From Candidatus Eiseniibacteriota bacterium (lineage in GTDB: Bacteria; Eisenbacteria; RBG-16-71-46; CAIMUX01; VGJL01), in NCBI GenBank assembly GCA_014729455.1, contig WJJW01000284.1, forward strand, positions 1 to 26,536: a stretch of 26,536 nucleotides of DNA. Reading direction: 5' to 3'. A program made the translations under genes and the position numbers. Under the pieces are notes generated by a model, which had not been told where the DNA came from, ran no database searches, and was given only the letters and a program-made list of their open reading frames with translations. Positions 7,031 to 15,428 of the stretch are shown one piece after another. The first letter of the stretch is position 1; each line of letters starts with the position of its first letter.

Positions 7031-7543
7031 CTAGTCGGGCTTCACCAGAAACAGCGCCTGGTTGAACTCGACCGGTTGTCCGTTCTCGATCAGGATCCGC
7101 TCGACCGTTCCCCGAACCTCCGATTCGATCTCGTTCATCAGCTTCATCGCTTCGACGATGCAGACGACCTGCCCCACCTCGACCCTCTGGTTCACCTCGA
7201 CGTACGGAGGGGAGGTCGGGGACGGGGCCCGGTAGAACGTGCCGACCATCGGCGAGTTGATCGCGACCAGCCCCTCCTCCCGCTCGGACGGAGCGGAGGG
7301 CTCGCCGGCGGGGACGGCGGCTGGATTCGGGGAAGCGTCGGGGGAAGGTTGCGGCGCCGGCGCGGAGGAGACCGGCGGATGCGGGGGCGGGGAAGAGAGG
7401 ACGTAGGTCCGCCCGTCGGAGCCGGACCCGTCTCCGGCCTGCTTCAGGATCCGGACCTTCGTCCAGAGCCGTCGGACCTCGAGCTCTCCGATCTCGCTCT
7501 CCTCCACCAGCTTGATCAACCGTCTGATCTCCTCGACGCGCAT
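7031..7543 (-). CDS. accB: Biotin carboxyl carrier protein of acetyl-CoA carboxylase
   Basis: IRRLIKLVEESEIGELE N-terminus, Pro/Ala/Ser linker, INSPMVGTFYRAPSP, biotinylation motif EAMKLMNEI; purine-rich SD upstream. Confidence 0.97.
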   Translation of the reverse strand: MRVEEIRRLIKLVEESEIGELEVRRLWTKVRILKQAGDGSGSDGRTYVLSSPPPHPPVSSAPAPQPSPDASPNPAAVPAGEPSAPSEREEGLVAINSPMVGTFYRAPSPTSPPYVEVNQRVEVGQVVCIVEAMKLMNEIESEVRGTVERILIENGQPVEFNQALFLVKPD

Positions 7544-7559
7544 GCCCCCTCCCTTTCCT

Positions 7560-8015
7560 CTAATCCCTCTCCGGACCGTCCGGCGCGGTGATCTCCACCA
7601 GCGCCCGGAGGCCGAGACGGTAGCCGACTTCGCCGAGGCCGGAGATCGTTCCCCGGCAGACCGGCGCGACGAGGTCCCGATGTCGGATCTCCTCCCGGGC
7701 CATCGGATTGGAGAGATGGACCTCGATCACCGGGTACGCGACCGCGGCGATGGCGTCCCGGAGCGCTACGCTCGTGTGCGTCCACCCCCCTGGATTGAGC
7801 AGGGCTCCGCGCACCCGCCCGCGCGCCCCGTGGAGTCGATCGATCATCTCCCCCTCGTGGTTCGTCTGGTGGAACTCCACCGCGACCCCCAGCCGGTCCG
7901 CCTCTTCGGTGATCGAGGCTTCCAGCTCCTCCAGGGATCGGTTGCCGTAGACCTCCGGCTCCCGGGTGCCGAGGAGGTTGAGATTCGGACCGTTGAGAAT
8001 CAGGATCGGTTTCAT
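7560..8015 (-). CDS. aroQ: Type II 3-dehydroquinate dehydratase
   Basis: LILNGPNLNLLGTREPEVYG, QTNHEGEMID, LNPGGWTHTSVALRDA, EVHLSN..RE. Confidence 0.97.
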   Translation of the reverse strand: MKPILILNGPNLNLLGTREPEVYGNRSLEELEASITEEADRLGVAVEFHQTNHEGEMIDRLHGARGRVRGALLNPGGWTHTSVALRDAIAAVAYPVIEVHLSNPMAREEIRHRDLVAPVCRGTISGLGEVGYRLGLRALVEITAPDGPERD

Positions 8016-8018
8016 CGG

Positions 8019-9104
8019 TCAGGCCAGGACGTAGGACGCCGCCTCGCGAATCGAGGCCATCGGAACACGCCGGTGGACGCTAACATCGCCTATATTCCCT
8101 GTCAACACGAAGCGGATCCCGTCCGCCCGCGTCTTCTTGTCGAAGCGGATCCAGGGCTCCACCTCCTCCCAGGTGCAGCCCCGCGCTCGGGTCGGCAGCC
8201 GGTGGCGCTCGAGAAGACGCTCCACCCGATCGCGGAGCCCCTCCGGCGCGAGCCCCATCTGGTGGGAGAGCTGGCAGGCGGCGACCAGGCCGACGGCGAC
8301 CGCCTCTCCGTGCCGGATCTCCCCGAACCCGCGGCTCGCCTCCAGGGCGTGACCGAGCGTGTGGCCCAGGTTCAGAACCTGACGCAGGCCGGCTTCCCGC
8401 TCGTCCTCCTCCACGATCCGGGCCTTGACCGCGATCGCCCGGGCGATCATCTCCTCGAGGACGGGTTCCTCTCTCCTCCAGATCGGCTCGACCCGCTCTT
8501 CCAACAACGCAAAAAGGGCCGGATCGCCGATCAGCCCGGCCTTCACGACCTCCGCCAGTCCATTGGCCAGCTCCTCGTCCGGAAGGGTGGAGAGGAACTC
8601 GGGCGCCGCCAGGACCAGCCGCGGCTGGTGGAACGCGCCCACCAGGTTCTTCGCGCCCGCATAGTCGATCCCGACCTTCCCGCCGACGCTCGAGTCGACC
8701 ATCGCCAGGAGACTGGTCGGGATCTGGATGAAGGCGACGCCGCGCAGGTAGGTCGCCGCCGCGAATCCGGCGAGATCCCCCGCCACGCCTCCGCCGAGGG
8801 CGAGAATCCAGCCGTCCCGGCGAATCTCGACCTCGAGGCAGGCGTCGTACAGACCCAGCAACGTCTCCCAACGCTTCGACTTCTCTCCCGCCGGGAACAG
8901 GGACGTCCGGGTCGCGAGCCCCCGCCGCCGGAACCCCTCCCCCACCCGGTCCGCCCAGAGCGGCCCGACCCGATCGTCGCTCACCAGCAGCCCCTGCCCT
9001 TCCGATCCGATCTCCGGCAGCTCGATCCCGTTCCACTCGCGGAGAGGAGAGAGCAGGACGCGATAGGAGCGCTCCCCCAGATCGACGGCGATCTCGCGGC
9101 TCAT
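8019..9104 (-). CDS. aroB: 3-dehydroquinate synthase
   Basis: GEKSK, ALGGGVAGDLAGFAAATYLRG, PTSLLAMVDSSVGGK, EVVKAG, LNLGHTLGHALE, HGEAVAVG, DKK; GGAGG upstream. Confidence 0.97.
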   Translation of the reverse strand: MSREIAVDLGERSYRVLLSPLREWNGIELPEIGSEGQGLLVSDDRVGPLWADRVGEGFRRRGLATRTSLFPAGEKSKRWETLLGLYDACLEVEIRRDGWILALGGGVAGDLAGFAAATYLRGVAFIQIPTSLLAMVDSSVGGKVGIDYAGAKNLVGAFHQPRLVLAAPEFLSTLPDEELANGLAEVVKAGLIGDPALFALLEERVEPIWRREEPVLEEMIARAIAVKARIVEEDEREAGLRQVLNLGHTLGHALEASRGFGEIRHGEAVAVGLVAACQLSHQMGLAPEGLRDRVERLLERHRLPTRARGCTWEEVEPWIRFDKKTRADGIRFVLTGNIGDVSVHRRVPMASIREAASYVLA

Positions 9105-9270: not shown

Positions 9271-10482
9271 CTAACGGTAGGCCGTGGCCAGGTGCCGGAG
9301 AAGCTGCAGCTCCCGCTGCAGATCCTCGATCCGGCGTTCCAGCCGCCGTTCCCGGCCGCCGACCTGGCGCCTCTGGCCCTCCTTCCAGATCGCGTGGCCG
9401 CGGTCGCCGAGCCGGACCTCGAGGCTCCGGGACCTTCCGTTCCGTTCCAGCTCGATCCGGACGCTCCGGCCGGGCCCCGTCGCGGCGACCCGGGAGGTCA
9501 GCTCGTCCCAGCCGTCCAGTTCCTCGCCCGCGAACGCGGTCAGGCGATCCTCGGGCTGGATCCCCGCGAAGCCGGCCGGGCTCGCCTGGATCACCTCGGC
9601 GATGACCACCCCGCCGCCCGCGTCGGCGTCGGGATCGGGAAGACGCGCGCGCACACCGAGGAACCCCTCGCGACCGGCCAACCCGTCTCGGATCGAGTCG
9701 ACGCGGGCGGCGATCAGCGCCACCGGGACGACCCAGGCCGCATCGCCCGGGCGGGAGGCCCGCATGCAGTACTCCACCGGCCCTTTGCCGGACCGGGTGG
9801 CGAGCAGCAGGCTCTCCTGTCCTTCTCCGAGCAGGATGCCGATCCAGCGCCCCGCACCGTCGAGGGCCGCCGAACCCGCCATTCTCGGATCGAAGCTGGT
9901 GGCGAGGCGGGCTCTCCAGAACGGCTCGGTCGGGATCCGTCCGAGGATCCGGCTCACCGACAGGTGCGGCTCCCTTCGGTCTTCCTCGTAGCCGACGAGG
10001 AGCGTCCAGCTGCGGGGTGCGAGGGGATCCGGCGCGCCGCGGGGGATCGGCACGAGGTCGGCCGGATCACGCATCCGGATCACGCTCAACCCGATCTCCG
10101 GATCCTGCCCGAGATAGTCGGCCGGGTGCGGCTGTCCCGAACCGACCCGGACGTGCAGGCTGTCTCCCGGCTGGGCGAGATCGGCGACGGTGACGATCGT
10201 GCCATTCCGATCCCAAACGACTCCCGTGCCCTGGATCCGGAGCGCGGCGAGCGAATCGACCTTCCAGGGCGGGGGATCGTTCCAGTGAGCGCTCCACGGC
10301 CGGCGGACGTCGATCCGCACGATCCCCGGCTCGCTGGCGCGTAGGATCTCGTCGATCCGCTCGGTGAGGTCGTCCCCGACGGAGGGACGCGGAGCCAGAC
10401 CGACGAGTAGAAGACACAAGACCCCCGCCAGGAAAGGCCGGGGATGCCTAGAAGACGATGGTGACCCGGGAGTTCGGATCAC
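9271..10482 (-). CDS. Exported HtrA/DegS-like trypsin-fold plus PDZ protein with degenerate catalytic triad (pseudoprotease) and C-terminal coiled coil, 403 aa
   Basis: GTG at 10482 follows AGGAGG; hydrophobic signal FLAGVLCLLLVGLA. HtrA-like scaffold QGTGVVWDRNGTIVTVADL, GQDPEIGLSVIR, FDPRMAGSAALDGAGRWIGI; PDZ motifs GFLGV and SPAGFAGIQPED; tail ERRLERRIEDLQRELQLL. The ORF-track start at 11049 is rejected. Confidence 0.8.
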   Translation of the reverse strand: MIRTPGSPSSSRHPRPFLAGVLCLLLVGLAPRPSVGDDLTERIDEILRASEPGIVRIDVRRPWSAHWNDPPPWKVDSLAALRIQGTGVVWDRNGTIVTVADLAQPGDSLHVRVGSGQPHPADYLGQDPEIGLSVIRMRDPADLVPIPRGAPDPLAPRSWTLLVGYEEDRREPHLSVSRILGRIPTEPFWRARLATSFDPRMAGSAALDGAGRWIGILLGEGQESLLLATRSGKGPVEYCMRASRPGDAAWVVPVALIAARVDSIRDGLAGREGFLGVRARLPDPDADAGGGVVIAEVIQASPAGFAGIQPEDRLTAFAGEELDGWDELTSRVAATGPGRSVRIELERNGRSRSLEVRLGDRGHAIWKEGQRRQVGGRERRLERRIEDLQRELQLLRHLATAYR

Positions 10483-11128
10483 GAGGCCTCCTGTTCTGGT
10501 CGGCGGTCCCCACCTGGCGCCCGAGCGCGTCCTGGCTGTAGGCGGATCCCCAATCGAGATCCTCGGTGGGGGAAGGTTCCCCGTCGACGGGCTCCTCGGA
10601 CTCCAGCCTCTGGAGCATCTCGTCGACGAGATCCTCGAACTGGCCCGCTGCCGGCGCTTCGTCGGTCGCCGCAAGCGTCGCTTCCCCCCGAGCCGCTTCC
10701 GGCCGCGCCGTCTCGGGCGCCGGCGTCCGTTCCGCGACCGGAACCGGATCGGGCGTCCGCAGAGCGAGCATCGCTCCTCCCACTCCGATGGCGAGGCCGA
10801 GAACGAGCGCGGCTCCGGCGAGCCGAGGCGTCGCGATCCAGCCGGTCGGAAGAAGCGACCGGAATCGTTCGATCCAGCTCGGCTCCGGCGGACGGATCCC
10901 CTCGGCCTGATACCGGCGAACGGAGAGGAGCACGTCCTCGAGGAACCCTTCGGTCGGAGGGACTTCGGGAAGGTCGCGAACCCACTGGAGGTTCCGTTCC
11001 ACCTTCGCCAGCTCGGCGGAGCAGCGGCTGCAACGATCGAGATGATCATCCAAGCGACGCTCTTCTGCGAAGCTGAGTCTCCCGTCGAGACGGGAGGAGA
11101 AAAGGTCGCGTGCGCTCTTACAGTTCAT
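10448..11128 (-). CDS. Zinc-binding (zf-HC2/ZAS) transmembrane anti-sigma factor
   Basis: MNCKSARDLFSSRLDG..HLDRCSRC (HxxxCxxC), one TM segment LAGAALVLGLAIGVGGAMLAL, acidic extracytoplasmic tail; start overlaps the sigma gene stop. Confidence 0.9.
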   Translation of the reverse strand: MNCKSARDLFSSRLDGRLSFAEERRLDDHLDRCSRCSAELAKVERNLQWVRDLPEVPPTEGFLEDVLLSVRRYQAEGIRPPEPSWIERFRSLLPTGWIATPRLAGAALVLGLAIGVGGAMLALRTPDPVPVAERTPAPETARPEAARGEATLAATDEAPAAGQFEDLVDEMLQRLESEEPVDGEPSPTEDLDWGSAYSQDALGRQVGTADQNRRPRDPNSRVTIVF

Positions 11129-11747
11129 CGGCGGTCCCCTCTATTGCTGGATCGAGAATTTCTTTCAGGGCCAGGCGAGCCCGGTTGATGCGTGACCGAA
11201 CCGTTCCTCCGGGGATCTTGAGCACGTCCCCGATCTCCTCGTAGGAGAGCTGCTGGATGTCGCGGAGCACGATCACTTCCCGGAACTTGGGCGGAAGCTG
11301 GTCGATCGCCTTCGTGACCTTCTCCTCGACGTCGCGTCGGCGGTAGAGCCGCTCCGGACCCGGTTTGGCATCCGCGATGAACCCTCCCGAATCCCCGGTC
11401 GCTTCCAGGAGTTTGTCGAGGGAGACCATCCCCCGTGCGCGGACCCGGCGCCGGATCTCGTTCTTCGCGAGGTTCATCGCGATCGTGTAGAGCCATGTGC
11501 TGAACTTCCCGCTCGGTCGGTACCGCTCCCGGTGGATGAACACCCGCAGGAACGTCTCCTGCGCGATTTCCTGGGCGCGGTCCCGATCGCTGATCAGGCG
11601 GGACACCACGTTGATGACCCGACCCTGGTAACGCGATACCAATGCGGAGAACGCCTCCTCGGCGCCGCGGACGATCTCCTCCATCAGCTCCTCGTCGGAG
11701 AGCGAAGCGTAGTCTCGGGCGGACGAGCGGTCGTCCCGACCAACCAT
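11118..11747 (-). CDS. ECF sigma-70 family sigma factor (RpoE/SigW-like)
   Basis: SDEELM..AFSALVSRY, AQEIAQETFLRVF, KFSTWLYTIAMNLAKNEIRRR, LRDIQQLSYEEIGDVL.IPGGTVRSRINRAR; GAGGAG SD. Confidence 0.95.
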   Translation of the reverse strand: MVGRDDRSSARDYASLSDEELMEEIVRGAEEAFSALVSRYQGRVINVVSRLISDRDRAQEIAQETFLRVFIHRERYRPSGKFSTWLYTIAMNLAKNEIRRRVRARGMVSLDKLLEATGDSGGFIADAKPGPERLYRRRDVEEKVTKAIDQLPPKFREVIVLRDIQQLSYEEIGDVLKIPGGTVRSRINRARLALKEILDPAIEGTADEL

Positions 11748-11768
11748 GCGTTCTCCTCTATCGGGGGC

Positions 11769-11797
11769 TTGTACCCCGCGTCCTCATCGAGGGTTCC
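11769..11797 (-). promoter_or_regulatory. Candidate ECF-type autoregulatory promoter upstream of the sigma gene
   Basis: Minus strand GGAAC (11797-11793), 18 nt, GTACAA (11774-11769), upstream of the sigma SD. Resembles the generic ECF GGAAC...GT consensus, but the spacer is about one base long. Confidence 0.25.
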
Positions 11798-13472
11798 CGG
11801 AGTCGGCGGGGCTCTTCCCCTCCCAGAGCTGCAGCAGCTCCCGGGTCTCCCGGTCCGCGGGAGCGGTACGGAGCCGATTCCGCAGCAGCCGGACCCCGGC
11901 CTCGACCTTCCCCGCCGATCGGTACGCCCGGGCCAGATGCATGAGGATCTCCGGCTCGTCCGGGTCAAGATCGCGCGCCCGTTCGAGTTGCGTCACCGCC
12001 TCTTCGTGCCGGCCGAGCTGGTAGAGGACCCACCCGTAGCTGTCCACATAGGCGGCCGTCTCCGGTTCCAGCTCCGCCGCCCGGCGGGTCCACTCCAGGG
12101 CCTCCTCCAGCGCCACGCCGTTCGTCGCGCACATGTAACCAGCGTAGTTCAGGGCCATTGCGTCATCCGGATGCGCCTCGATCAGGCGGCGCAGCCAGAC
12201 CAGCGCGGCCTCGGTCCGTCCTTGACGGTCCTCGAGGACGGCCAGGCGGAAGAGGATCTCCCGATCCGTCTCGTTCCCTTCCAGGATCTTCTCGAGCTGC
12301 GTCCGGGCGCCGTCGCCGTCCCCCTGCTCGTCGAGGAGGATCGCGGCGAGCAGGCGGGCCTGCCGGTTCTCGGGATCCAGCCGGTGGACCGTCTTCAATG
12401 CGGCCAAGGACTCCTCCGTCCTCCCGAGCCGTGCCAGCGAGCGGGCGTAGTACCAAACAGCCTTCGGGCTCTCCGGCTCCGCCGCTGCCATCTCCTCGGC
12501 CACGCGGAGGGCGGCCTCCACGCTGTCCGCGCGGCTCAGGGCCCTCCAGAGCCAGTCGCCCGAGTCCTGCAGGTCGGGATCGAGGCGGCGCGCTCGACGG
12601 AAGAGAGCGATCGCTTCGCGCAACCGCTCCTGGCCGAACCGGACCACCCCGAGCTGCATCGGCACCCGCGGATCGCTCGGATCGTCGATCATCAGCCGCT
12701 CGAGATCCGGGATCGCCTCCTCCTGGCGGTTGAGCAGGATCAGGATCCGCGTGAGTTCGCGCCGCAGGTCGGTCCGGTGCGGCACCGCCTCCAGCGCCCG
12801 CCGGCAAGCCGATGCGGTCACGCGGGAGGGACCGAGCCTCCAGCAGAGGGCCAGCAGGTGATCCGCCGCACCCGGGTAGCCGGGAGCCTGCACCAGCGCC
12901 GCCAGATAGTCCTCCAGCGCTTCCTGGGGACGGCCCAGCCGGGTCCGGAGCGTTCCCCGCCGCATCAGCAGGTACGGGCTCTCCGGCTCGATCCCGCCCT
13001 CGCTCGGCTCCACCAGCCGGCACGCCTCTTCGAGCTTTCCGATCGACTCCAGCGCGAGCAGGAGGTTCACCCGATGGCTCCGTTCCTCCGGGGCGAGCTC
13101 CATCGCGCGGCGCAACGGCTCCAGCGCTTCGGAGGACCGGGAAAGCTGCAGCAGGGCCTGCCCGAGGACCGCATGGCTCTCCGCCTCTTCGGGAGCGAGA
13201 CGGATCGCTTCGCGGGCGGGCTCGAGCGCCTCCTTCGGACGGCGCGCCTCGAGCAGCACGCGGGCCAGCTCCCGCGAAACGTCCGGAGCGTCGGGATCGA
13301 GCGTTCGGGCGGCTCTCAGCTCCTGGGCGGCCTCCTCCAGACGTCCCTCCTCCGCGAGCTGGATCCCTCGGAGGAAGCGATCCCAGGCTTCCGGCCCCTC
13401 TCCCTCGGCCGGAGCGCCCGACAGGAGCAGGGGGACCCCGACGGCGAACAGAACGGTGAACAACCTCTTCAC
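11784..13472 (-). CDS. Exported multi-TPR protein, 562 aa
   Basis: GTG after AAGGAG; signal peptide MKRLFTVLFAVGVPLLLSGAPA; many TPR-like helical repeats with ...LDP/LAP/LEP turns. C-terminal block ALNYAGY..EEALEWTRRAAELEP..AAYVDSYGWVLYQLG is typical of a widespread envelope TPR family (Pseudomonas LbcA-like, from memory). Confidence 0.9.
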   Translation of the reverse strand: MKRLFTVLFAVGVPLLLSGAPAEGEGPEAWDRFLRGIQLAEEGRLEEAAQELRAARTLDPDAPDVSRELARVLLEARRPKEALEPAREAIRLAPEEAESHAVLGQALLQLSRSSEALEPLRRAMELAPEERSHRVNLLLALESIGKLEEACRLVEPSEGGIEPESPYLLMRRGTLRTRLGRPQEALEDYLAALVQAPGYPGAADHLLALCWRLGPSRVTASACRRALEAVPHRTDLRRELTRILILLNRQEEAIPDLERLMIDDPSDPRVPMQLGVVRFGQERLREAIALFRRARRLDPDLQDSGDWLWRALSRADSVEAALRVAEEMAAAEPESPKAVWYYARSLARLGRTEESLAALKTVHRLDPENRQARLLAAILLDEQGDGDGARTQLEKILEGNETDREILFRLAVLEDRQGRTEAALVWLRRLIEAHPDDAMALNYAGYMCATNGVALEEALEWTRRAAELEPETAAYVDSYGWVLYQLGRHEEAVTQLERARDLDPDEPEILMHLARAYRSAGKVEAGVRLLRNRLRTAPADRETRELLQLWEGKSPADSGNPR

Positions 13473-13532: not shown

Positions 13533-13562
13533 TTGACAGGGTGATGAACCGGCTCCTATACT
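13533..13562 (+). promoter_or_regulatory. Near-consensus sigma70 promoter for the lipoprotein-FadL operon
   Basis: TTGACA (13533-13538), 18 nt, TATACT (13557-13562), followed by SD AAAGGAG at 13584-13590. Confidence 0.7.
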
Positions 13563-13600
13563 CCGGTGTAGACCCGTTCGGGGAAAGGAGCAAGCCGCTC

Positions 13601-14074
13601 ATGCATCGAATTCGTCCCATCCTGCTCGTGTTCGTCCTCGCCGCACTCGCCGGGGGGGGCTGCTATACCATGCTCCGGCACCCCGCGACCCACGACATGG
13701 TCGACGTCCACGGGACGCAGCGTCCCTGCGCCGACTGCCACGTGGACGAGGACCTGTACGGGTACACCGAGGCGTACGGATCCTCCTGGTATTCCTATTA
13801 TCCGGCTCCGTGGGCCTCGTATTACGGGAACCCCTGGTGGTACGACGACTACTGGTACTACCGGCCCGGCGACGACGCGCCGGTCCTCCCCCCGGCCCGG
13901 GAGGGGCGCAACGTCTGGAGCCGCAGCGGCGGCGGCCCGGGTTTCATCCCGTATCAGGGCAACCCGAGCCCCGATTCGCCTCCGTCGGGGAAGGAGGAGA
14001 GATCCCGCTCCGACGACGAGGACGAGAAGCCGGAAAAGAAGAAAGAGAAGAAGAGGAACCTCTGGGGTCGATGA
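13601..14074 (+). CDS. Small lipoprotein with a single CxxCH motif, Tyr/Trp-rich tract and charged disordered tail, 157 aa; function unknown
   Basis: ATG at 13601 follows AAAGGAG (the ORF-track start at 13541 lies inside the promoter). Lipoprotein signal MHRIRPILLVFVLAALAGGG-C, CADCH at residues 43-47, then YGYTEAYGSSWYSYYPAPWASYYGNPWWYDDYWYY. Confidence 0.85.
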   Translation: MHRIRPILLVFVLAALAGGGCYTMLRHPATHDMVDVHGTQRPCADCHVDEDLYGYTEAYGSSWYSYYPAPWASYYGNPWWYDDYWYYRPGDDAPVLPPAREGRNVWSRSGGGPGFIPYQGNPSPDSPPSGKEERSRSDDEDEKPEKKKEKKRNLWGR

Positions 14075-14117
14075 GACCGGGCGGGCCGCGCCCCCCGAGC
14101 GATCGAAGGAGGCGACG

Positions 14118-15428
14118 GTGTTGAAACGACGGACGAGGGGCCGGTCCCCGTGGAGGGGGCCGGGTTTCTGTTTGCTGATGGTGATGCTCCTGGCTGGGCT
14201 CGCCCCGGACGCAGCGCGCGCCCAGGGAGAGACGCAGAACCTCCCCGAGATCCCCCTGACCCACCGGACACCGGTCGCCGCGCGCTACGCCGGGATGGGC
14301 GGCGCGTCGCTGACCATCGCGGACGATCATTCCGCCTGTCTGGCCAACCCCGCGACGCTCGGCCTGGTGCGTGGGATCGAGCTCGCCGCCGGATTCTCGC
14401 ACCAGGATGCGGACCGGGAGGTCCGGTACCTGGGCAGCCCCACCCGAGCGGAGTACGGCAAGACCCGCTTCGCCGATCTCGGCTTCGCCTACCCGTTCCC
14501 GACGTACCGGGGGCGGTTCGTCATCGGCTTCCAGTACGGCAGAATCAGCAGCCTCGATTCGGACTTCTACCAGCGGAGCCCCGCGTCGAGCGATCAGCCG
14601 TTCGAGGAGGAAGGGATCTACGAGACGGGGGGGCTCGGCGCCTACGCCGTGTCCGCGGCTCTCCAGGTCAGCCCGAACGTGACCCTCGGCGCCTCCGGGA
14701 TCATCCTGAGCGGCGACAGCTTCCGGGAACGGACCTACCGCTATGACGCGTCGGGCGGGGGGTTCTCCGACCTCTACGAGACGACCGATGTCGACATCAG
14801 CGGCCTGACGGGATCGGTCGGCGCCCTGGTCGAGCTCGACCCCGCGATCCGCTTCGGCCTCCTCATCCGGTTCCCCGAATCGCTCGACTTCGACGGGATC
14901 CTCTACGAGGAGATCGACGGCGAGGACTCGGCGGAGTTCAGCATCACCGATGAGATCGACCTGCCGTTCCGACTGGGCGCCGGACTGGCGCTGGCTCGCC
15001 AGAACCTGATCGTCTCCGCCGACGCCCTCTTCACCGACTGGACGCAGGTCCGCTTCGCCGGTCCCGTCCGAACCGTCGACCGGGAGAACGCCTACCGGGA
15101 GACCGTCGACCTCCACTTCGGGGCCGAGTACCTCATCCCGTTCTCGACTCCGGTGCGGATCCGCGCGGGGTACGCGCTGCAGCCGCTCGCCTACCGCCTG
15201 CTGCTGACCGACGTCCAGGCACGTCGCTACGAGGAGGCCCGGTTCGACCGGGACCGCTACGCGTATACCTTCGGCCTCGGCGCTCTGCTCGGCGAATCGC
15301 TGACCCTGGATCTCGCCTATCAGCACGGTGGATACGAGAGAAGCGCTTCCCATCCGACCGGGCTGCGGTACCGGGAGGAGGTCACCGATCGACGCGTTCT
15401 GGCGACGCTCACGCTACGCGTGAACTGA
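14118..15428 (+). CDS. FadL/OmpP1/PorV-superfamily outer-membrane beta-barrel
   Basis: AAGGAGG SD, signal peptide ending AARA, N-terminal hatch motif AARYAGMGGASLTIADDHSACLANPATL, alternating beta-strands, RIRAGY, YTFGLG..LDLAY. Start could be GTG 14118 or TTG 14121. Confidence 0.85.
   Translation: MLKRRTRGRSPWRGPGFCLLMVMLLAGLAPDAARAQGETQNLPEIPLTHRTPVAARYAGMGGASLTIADDHSACLANPATLGLVRGIELAAGFSHQDADREVRYLGSPTRAEYGKTRFADLGFAYPFPTYRGRFVIGFQYGRISSLDSDFYQRSPASSDQPFEEEGIYETGGLGAYAVSAALQVSPNVTLGASGIILSGDSFRERTYRYDASGGGFSDLYETTDVDISGLTGSVGALVELDPAIRFGLLIRFPESLDFDGILYEEIDGEDSAEFSITDEIDLPFRLGAGLALARQNLIVSADALFTDWTQVRFAGPVRTVDRENAYRETVDLHFGAEYLIPFSTPVRIRAGYALQPLAYRLLLTDVQARRYEEARFDRDRYAYTFGLGALLGESLTLDLAYQHGGYERSASHPTGLRYREEVTDRRVLATLTLRVN

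Follow-up and report, generated by a model that had tools for sequence, protein, structure and literature searches.

Gene organisation of the locus

The window analysed here is a 26,536-nucleotide stretch of contig WJJW01000284.1 from Candidatus Eiseniibacteriota bacterium, a 3.1-Mb metagenome-assembled genome that is 75.7% complete. The locus under study is a run of four co-oriented genes on the minus strand of this window. From their open reading frames (ORFs) and their Pfam and NCBIfam domains, these genes encode, from upstream to downstream, a tetratricopeptide repeat (TPR) protein with matches to many TPR families, an extracytoplasmic function (ECF) sigma factor (Sigma70_r2 and r4), a zinc-associated anti-sigma factor (ZAS; zf-HC2) and an HtrA-like protein with a PDZ domain (Trypsin_2 and PDZ_2). 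The sigma and anti-sigma genes overlap by 11 nt and the anti-sigma and HtrA-like genes by 35 nt, while a gap of 36 nt separates the TPR gene from the sigma gene. This layout had been described in an earlier note on the window, and all of its figures were exact on re-reading. The ORF of the HtrA-like protein (9271-10482) begins with GTG, with AGGAGG 4 nt before it. A consensus scan for terminators between the four genes found none. A search for sequencing runs covering window positions 9271-13472 returned none. The coordinates of the features are given in Table 1.

Table 1. Features of the locus and genes of the predicted regulon. Positions are those of the window unless a contig (C) and locus (L) are named. 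AF2, AlphaFold2; pLDDT, predicted local distance difference test; TM, transmembrane.
Feature	Position	Strand	Basis or remark
DegS-like HtrA pseudoprotease, 403 aa	9271..10482	(-)	N-terminal hydrophobic anchor, triad-less trypsin fold, one PDZ, long C-terminal helix
D101 at the catalytic His position	10180..10182	(-)	alignment to DegQ, DegP, DegS and 39 orthologues
G131 at the catalytic Asp position	10090..10092	(-)	same alignments; G, H, N, S or Q in the 20 orthologues read
A202 at the catalytic Ser position	9877..9879	(-)	same alignments; flanking G203 invariant
PDZ domain, residues ~270-358	9409..9675	(-)	PDZ_2 and PDZ_6
PDZ carboxylate-binding loop G273-F-L-G-V277	9652-9666	(-)	L275 nearly invariant, G276 invariant
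C-terminal helix, ~42 residues (361-402)	9277..9402	(-)	AF2 pLDDT 85-98; alignable in all orthologues and KSB1-type relatives
Single-pass ZAS (class I) anti-sigma factor, 226 aa	10448..11128	(-)	zf-HC2 PF13490, E = 5e-9
Zinc motif H29-x3-C33-x2-C36	11021..11044	(-)	invariant in 33/33 aligned orthologues
Predicted TM helix, anti-sigma residues 101-122	10763..10828	(-)	hydrophobic stretch and AF2 helix
C-terminal tail V-T-I-V-F-COOH, candidate PDZ ligand	10451..10465	(-)	tail conservation in orthologues
Tail position 0			F in 44/44 tails
Tail position -1			T, V or I in 42/44 tails
Tail position -2			I, V, M or L in 40/44 tails
Tail position -3			Y or F in 19/44 tails
ECF (group 4) sigma factor, 209 aa	11118..11747	(-)	Sigma70_r2 (residues 36-103), Sigma70_r4_2 (142-194)
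Predicted ECF-type promoter GGAAC-N16-GGGTA	11772..11797	(-)	24 nt upstream of the sigma ATG, over the TPR stop codon
Secreted TPR protein, 562 aa	11784..13472	(-)	TPR families only, no NCBIfam equivalog reached
TonB_2-domain TolA-like gene heading tolB-pal-cpoB	C125 (L204:1293-4767)		motif in 5/5 sister genomes
PorV-like outer-membrane protein	C101 (L206:1092-2084)		motif in 4/5 sister genomes
moxR-DUF58	C224 (L205:265-2180)		motif in 4/5 sister genomes
Two-PDZ DegP-like HtrA, intact triad	C390 (L155:1123-2649)		motif in 4/4 sister genomes

A DegS-like protein without a catalytic triad

The AF2 monomer model of the HtrA-like protein, made with 40 orthologues, has a pLDDT of 87. In it an HtrA protease domain is followed by a single PDZ domain and then by an additional helix at the C-terminus. 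Foldseek matched it to DegQ, DegP, Deg1, DegS and AlgW, in each case at probability 1.0 and about 20% identity. Of the features that define the HtrA/DegS (S1C) family, the trypsin fold and the PDZ domain are both present, the latter with its x-Phi-G-Phi carboxylate loop (Phi, a hydrophobic residue), and the His-Asp-Ser triad is absent. In its place stand D101, G131 and A202. When 20 orthologues were read directly, none had His or Asp at the respective triad position, and two had kept the Ser. The earlier note had called this protein a catalytically dead HtrA-PDZ protein, and the description appears to fit the whole clade, which is without the triad throughout. Judged by its sequence, the protein is HtrA-derived and should not be classed as a protease; it is referred to below as the pseudoprotease.

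A profile of the pseudoprotease family was searched against 1.84 billion representatives. The triad reads HDS in 40 of the best 150 hits and is non-canonical in about 110 (DGA, DGC, EGC, RHG, SNS, SGS and others), the dead forms amounting to at least 100 sequence clusters. On a FastTree phylogeny of the 102 single-PDZ hits, the label dead or live needs 2 changes, compared with a mean of 25 when the labels are shuffled. Because so few changes are needed, catalysis was probably lost anciently, once or twice, on a tree that is approximate and whose sample is biased by a profile made from dead members.

The best-conserved part of the pseudoprotease is its PDZ domain, where L275, G276, S301, P302, A303, G311 and D312 show little or no variation. 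The C-terminal helix has a heptad-like spacing of charged residues and Leu; it is not seen in DegS and is present in KSB1-type relatives. This helix may drive oligomerisation.

The anti-sigma factor ends in a conserved aromatic tail

Among 33 aligned orthologues the mean column identity is 23%, and the anti-sigma factor is invariant at M1, C3, H29, C33, C36 and F226 only. The last residue of the protein, F226, is therefore the sole invariant position besides M1 and the N-terminal Cys/His zinc ligands, and the periplasmic region is otherwise barely alignable. In the AF2 model the helical N-terminal domain (residues 3-75) is confident, with pLDDT above 90. Beyond the helix at residues 101-122 follows a periplasmic region of about 100 residues, which is mostly coil and has a pLDDT of 45-69.

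The ends of the anti-sigma factors were compared over 44 distinct Eisenbacteria tails. Their consensus is V-Y-I-T-F, and the anti-sigma factor of the window ends in RVTIVF. This hydrophobic C-terminus had been put forward as a plausible PDZ ligand, and the conservation of its last four residues, TIVF, had been proposed as a check. The tail proved to be the most conserved feature outside the zinc site: far from being variable, it ends in Phe in all 44 cases. KSB1-type anti-sigma factors end in [VI]-Y. In the Bacteroidota loci that contain nearest relatives of the sigma factor, no PDZ gene lies downstream, and the downstream ORFs are without a Phi-x-F/Y ending.

As a Phi-x-Phi-COOH sequence, the tail resembles in class the Y-x-F peptides of DegS and the peptides of AlgW. 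According to PDB entry titles and PMC8545111, the PDZ domains of these two proteins recognise C-termini with the sequence Y-x-F or W-V-F, which belong to outer-membrane proteins or to MucE.

A second periplasmic motif, E-[FY]-[VI]-L-[ED]-P-[FY], was observed 25-35 residues before the anti-sigma C-terminus in most lineages (alignment columns ~345-365; loci L039, L044, L046-L052, L054-L057, L066-L072 and L169). At the same place the family of the window has a D-W-G...G-R-Q-V-G segment. The motif could make a further contact, for instance with the degenerate substrate cleft of the pseudoprotease.

Distribution and conserved order of the module

Of 201 genomes sampled from the phylum, 153 had a match to the pseudoprotease at E <= 1e-10. 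Gene order was surveyed at the best locus from each of 40 of these matching Eisenbacteria genomes, which span the sampled class. The order sigma, anti-sigma, HtrA-like was kept in 39 of the 40 loci, usually followed by aroB-aroQ, and the exception (L065) is a paralogue. In the 39 loci, as well as in 6 loci of KSB1/Zhuqueibacterota type, the three genes lie on the same strand with their reading frames overlapping or abutting. Independent representatives from the profile search have the same gene context. The earlier note had proposed conservation of a four-gene order as a check on the module. What is conserved is the order of the three genes from sigma to the pseudoprotease, in Eisenbacteria and KSB1-type loci alike; the TPR gene does not share in it, as set out below.

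The nearest relatives of the sigma factor outside the phylum, at 40-48% identity, are on KSB1/Zhuqueibacterota-type contigs and in Bacteroidota (Rhodothermales and Balneolales). The KSB1-type HtrA-like protein is without the catalytic His and Asp and has the same C-terminal helix as the pseudoprotease.

The domains of the sigma factor are limited to Sigma70_r2 and Sigma70_r4_2, and it scores 103 bits with TIGR02937 (cut-off 42.9). It does not reach the level of an equivalog, the best NCBIfam models being RpoE_Sigma70 at 144 bits (cut-off 236) and SigW at 139 bits (cut-off 209). The ECF assignment also draws on the 11-nt overlap with the zf-HC2 gene and on a conserved AAC-containing -35 box in the predicted promoter upstream. 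Identity of the sigma factor is 60-83% across the order and 50-58% across the class. In one genome (G089, L042:4653-5239) the match to the sigma gene is split in two, with a change of reading frame at the junction, a sign of either a frameshift or an error in assembly. In the 2021 ECF reclassification of Casas-Pastor (PMC7826278), the main text contains no mention of HtrA, PDZ, trypsin, DegS or DegP.

A gene for a DUF4837 lipoprotein of about 340 aa stands between the pseudoprotease gene and aroB in many Eisenbacteria families (for example L043:909-1958, L054:807-1817, L062:832-1881, L072:7346-8425 and L168:5442-6473). The gene is not at this position in the family of the window, and tblastn found none in the 75.7%-complete genome. 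The module may have in this lipoprotein a fourth component that varies between lineages.

A conserved promoter and a predicted envelope regulon

The predicted promoter before the sigma gene has its GGAAC box at 11797-11793 and, after a 16-nt spacer, its GGGTA box at 11776-11772. The pattern GGAAC-N15/16-G(G/T)GT(A/T) recurs about 20-30 nt upstream of the sigma start in at least 35 of 40 orthologous loci, and near variants (CTGTA, AGGTA) occupy the site in the remaining ones. Since the same boxes, spacing and distance recur around spacer sequences that are unrelated, this predicted promoter is real and far from chance. The earlier note had listed a weak GGAAC-N18-GTAC candidate; it is the same site, counted two bases further on.

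The strict promoter pattern has 12 matches in the 3.1-Mb genome. Because this is no more than chance, single hits mean little, and the motif was therefore footprinted upstream of orthologues in five genomes of the same family, with gene identities taken from Pfam. The motif recurred upstream of a TolA-like gene that heads tolB-pal-cpoB, a gene for a PorV-like outer-membrane protein, moxR-DUF58 and a DegP-like htrA gene (Table 1). Three other candidates were rejected: a lipoprotein MsrB and a small secreted PDZ protein, each with the motif in only 1 of 5 sister genomes, and a lipoprotein on contig C289 (0 of 3). As the motif recurs upstream of envelope genes in the sister genomes, the predicted regulon is concerned, like that of sigma-E, with the integrity and quality control of the outer membrane. 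The envelope-stress role that had been suggested for the locus is supported by the regulon as predicted by footprinting in these five genomes.

Upstream of the DegP-like htrA gene, the block GGAACATTTGC...GGGTTCTCCA is wholly conserved, and a sigma-70-like TAnACT box lies just before it. A sigma-54 reading of this block was ruled out by the wrong GG-to-GC spacing.

The genome was also inspected for the machinery of regulated proteolysis. It contains one RseP gene (Peptidase_M50, with an HELGH motif and a PDZ domain; contig C374), one gene for an S41 peptidase and three for HtrAs in which His-Asp-Ser is intact. None of the three HtrAs, nor the S41 peptidase, is linked to this anti-sigma factor. 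Contig C270 carries a TM-anchored HtrA with a single PDZ domain and an intact triad. An RseB homologue (MucB_RseB, PF03888) had no match in the 75.7%-complete genome.

A proposed shielding model and its alternatives

We regard it as an even call that these genes form an autoregulated sigma-E-type envelope-stress operon in which the PDZ domain of a dead DegS descendant shields the tail of the anti-sigma factor and releases it by competition. The steps would be as follows. The anti-sigma factor would hold sigma at the inner membrane. The pseudoprotease, membrane-anchored and unable to cleave, would hold the beta-strand-like V-Y-I-T-F-COOH tail in its PDZ domain, thereby hiding the anti-sigma factor from the proteases that start regulated intramembrane proteolysis; the candidates to be kept off are a live HtrA, the S41 protease or RseP directly. 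Unassembled outer-membrane proteins with C-termini ending in Phe would then compete for the PDZ domain, and the tail would be released. Degradation of the freed anti-sigma factor would then proceed through RseP, whether or not a site-1 cut comes first, and sigma would be set free to drive its own operon together with tolA-tolB-pal-cpoB, the PorV-like porin gene, moxR-DUF58 and the gene for the live DegP-like protease. The binding of the tail to the PDZ domain, the competition by outer-membrane proteins and the choice of the protease that acts are the parts that we infer. A little short of even, in our estimate, is the narrower proposal that sensing is protease-free, with the tail mimicking the C-terminus of an outer-membrane protein, being displaced competitively and then licensing RseP or tail-specific proteolysis directly.

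Several points weigh against the shielding model. That the PDZ domain binds the tail at all is something that we infer, and the sequence suits a presenter of the tail as well as a shield. The hydrophobic C-terminus could serve another PDZ protein, such as RseP, a live HtrA or the S41 protease. The co-occurrence of tail and pseudoprotease rests on two or three clades and is phylogenetically confounded. Not every local outer-membrane protein ends in Phe, the neighbouring FadL-like barrel having the C-terminus ...RVN. As for the regulon, 12 genome-wide promoter matches are no more than base composition predicts (~18, a rough estimate), and the regulon calls, which rest on five related and non-independent genomes, are footprinting rather than statistics. 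Co-folding of pseudoprotease residues 40-403 with anti-sigma residues 125-226, based on alignments of our own, gave a score of 0.00 in a run without controls, and counts neither way.

The pseudoprotease might instead be a co-transcribed effector, a holdase or chaperone that serves outer-membrane proteins in the periplasm, and the tail might be read by a live DegS-like HtrA, by RseP or by the S41 protease. Genes of the htrA/degP type are common in sigma-E-type regulons, DegP has a chaperone role that is independent of its protease, and the live DegP-like gene of this genome carries the promoter motif; the HtrA on contig C270, RseP and the S41 peptidase would be at hand as readers. What an effector leaves unexplained is why the pseudoprotease and anti-sigma genes always overlap or abut, and why the aromatic tail is seen only where a pseudoprotease gene follows, and we consider such a role unlikely. 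A positive adaptor, needed for activation, would present the tail to a live HtrA, possibly in mixed trimers, or to RseP. Such a role would suit the presence of three live HtrAs in the genome and a trypsin-fold core that is well conserved and confidently modelled, and in plant DEG7 degenerate HtrA protease domains can reportedly serve as oligomerisation modules. Against this, hetero-oligomers are without support, the operons of Eisenbacteria contain no gene for a live HtrA, and the additional C-terminal helix occurs only in the dead clade; presentation of the tail seems distinctly improbable. Least credible of all, to the point that we would be surprised to see it hold, is that the HtrA-like protein is still a protease, cleaving the anti-sigma factor as DegS does by means of non-canonical residues. 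In some orthologues the nucleophile position is indeed occupied by a retained Ser or by Cys, but the three triad positions vary freely within the clade, His is found in none of the 20 orthologues read, and in the orthologue alignment the protease domain has no alternative invariant polar constellation.

A further alternative involves the TPR protein, which the earlier note had counted as a member of a four-gene module. TPR protein and pseudoprotease would act on the anti-sigma factor as an adaptor pair, in the way that NlpI and Prc form a pair of TPR protein and PDZ protease. In favour of this, the TPR gene is co-oriented with the sigma gene, 36 nt upstream of it, and was detected in 28 of the 39 Eisenbacteria loci. 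Yet the gene lies upstream of the ECF promoter, the ECF motif was found before none of its 26 orthologues, and the TPR gene was not detected in the other 11 of the 39 loci, which include whole families, nor in the KSB1-type loci, all of which keep the other three genes. For these reasons the TPR protein is probably a separate neighbour, for whose membership of the module the comparisons lend no support, and an adaptor pair of this kind is very unlikely. A consensus scan found no sigma-70 promoter for the TPR gene; read-through from it into the sigma gene may occur, since no terminator was found.

Flanking genes

Divergent from the TPR gene, at window positions 13541-15428 on the plus strand, are a gene for a small membrane protein rich in Tyr and Trp (177 aa, no Pfam family) and one for a FadL/Toluene_X-like barrel. 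Both hold the same position in most of the Eisenbacteria loci examined, with a convergent rnc next to them. On the other side, aroB-aroQ lie downstream of the module on the minus strand (7031-9104), as in nearly all Eisenbacteria loci, and in some relatives efp and accB come next. The gap between the pseudoprotease gene and aroB ranges from 33 nt to 260 nt across loci, and reaches about 1 kb in loci that have the DUF4837 gene. It is possible that aroB-aroQ are co-transcribed with the module.

Significance and comparison with known systems

Envelope-stress sensing by DegS, RseA and sigma-E is a textbook system, the first step of which is a PDZ-gated proteolytic cut. In the present module a DegS-like clade has lost catalysis and yet stays tied to a sigma/anti-sigma pair whose anti-sigma factor bears a tail resembling a PDZ ligand. 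If the binding holds, the same parts would be wired as a sensor that works by competition or shielding, with a pseudoenzyme in the place that RseB has in E. coli. Through the predicted regulon (Tol-Pal, PorV, MoxR and DegP), such a sensor would also offer a first way into the envelope homeostasis of Eisenbacteria and KSB1-type bacteria, both of which are without cultured members. Should sensing in fact be protease-free, the module would represent an old variant of the sigma-E paradigm with a different wiring, common to several uncultured phyla. The literature on anti-sigma factors paired with an HtrA pseudoprotease, and on sigma factors of Eisenbacteria, was searched and no description of this module was found.

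One close counterpart is RpoE-RseA-RseB/DegS/RseP of E. coli. Both systems have an ECF sigma factor, a single-pass anti-sigma factor and a membrane-anchored HtrA fold with one PDZ domain, RseP is present in both, the PDZ domain probably has a C-terminal Phi-x-F peptide as its ligand, and the predicted regulon here likewise takes in a DegP-like protease and genes of outer-membrane integrity. Unlike E. coli DegS, the protein described here is triad-less, is encoded inside the operon and carries an additional C-terminal helix of about 42 residues. The Phi-x-F peptide is on the anti-sigma factor itself, and not only on outer-membrane proteins, and the anti-sigma factor is of the ZAS type rather than the RseA type; an RseB homologue was not found in the genome at its 75.7% completeness. 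In function the nearest analogue would be RseB: the shielding proposed for the pseudoprotease would be similar to that of RseB and MucB, non-catalytic periplasmic partners that protect the anti-sigma factor until a stress ligand displaces them. There is no homology between the two, and whereas RseB has a LolA-like fold and acts on an internal segment of RseA, an HtrA/PDZ fold would here bind the extreme C-terminus.

In AlgU-MucA-MucB/AlgW/MucE of P. aeruginosa, the PDZ domain of an HtrA-type protein also reads an aromatic C-terminus (WVF of MucE) on a dedicated signalling protein, and not on bulk outer-membrane proteins alone. However, AlgW is active and MucE is a separate small protein, whereas in the present module the HtrA has lost catalysis and it is the anti-sigma factor that bears the motif. 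Trypsin folds of HtrA proteins that have been kept for binding or oligomerisation without catalysis are found in MamO of the magnetosome and in plant DEG7. Their functions are in biomineralisation and photosystem repair, respectively, and they have no link to a sigma/anti-sigma pair. The order ECF sigma, anti-sigma, HtrA-family gene is also that of sigE-rseA-htrA in M. tuberculosis (Rv1221-Rv1223), an organism that differs, as does its type of envelope, from the one described here, and in which the Rv1223 HtrA is catalytically active.

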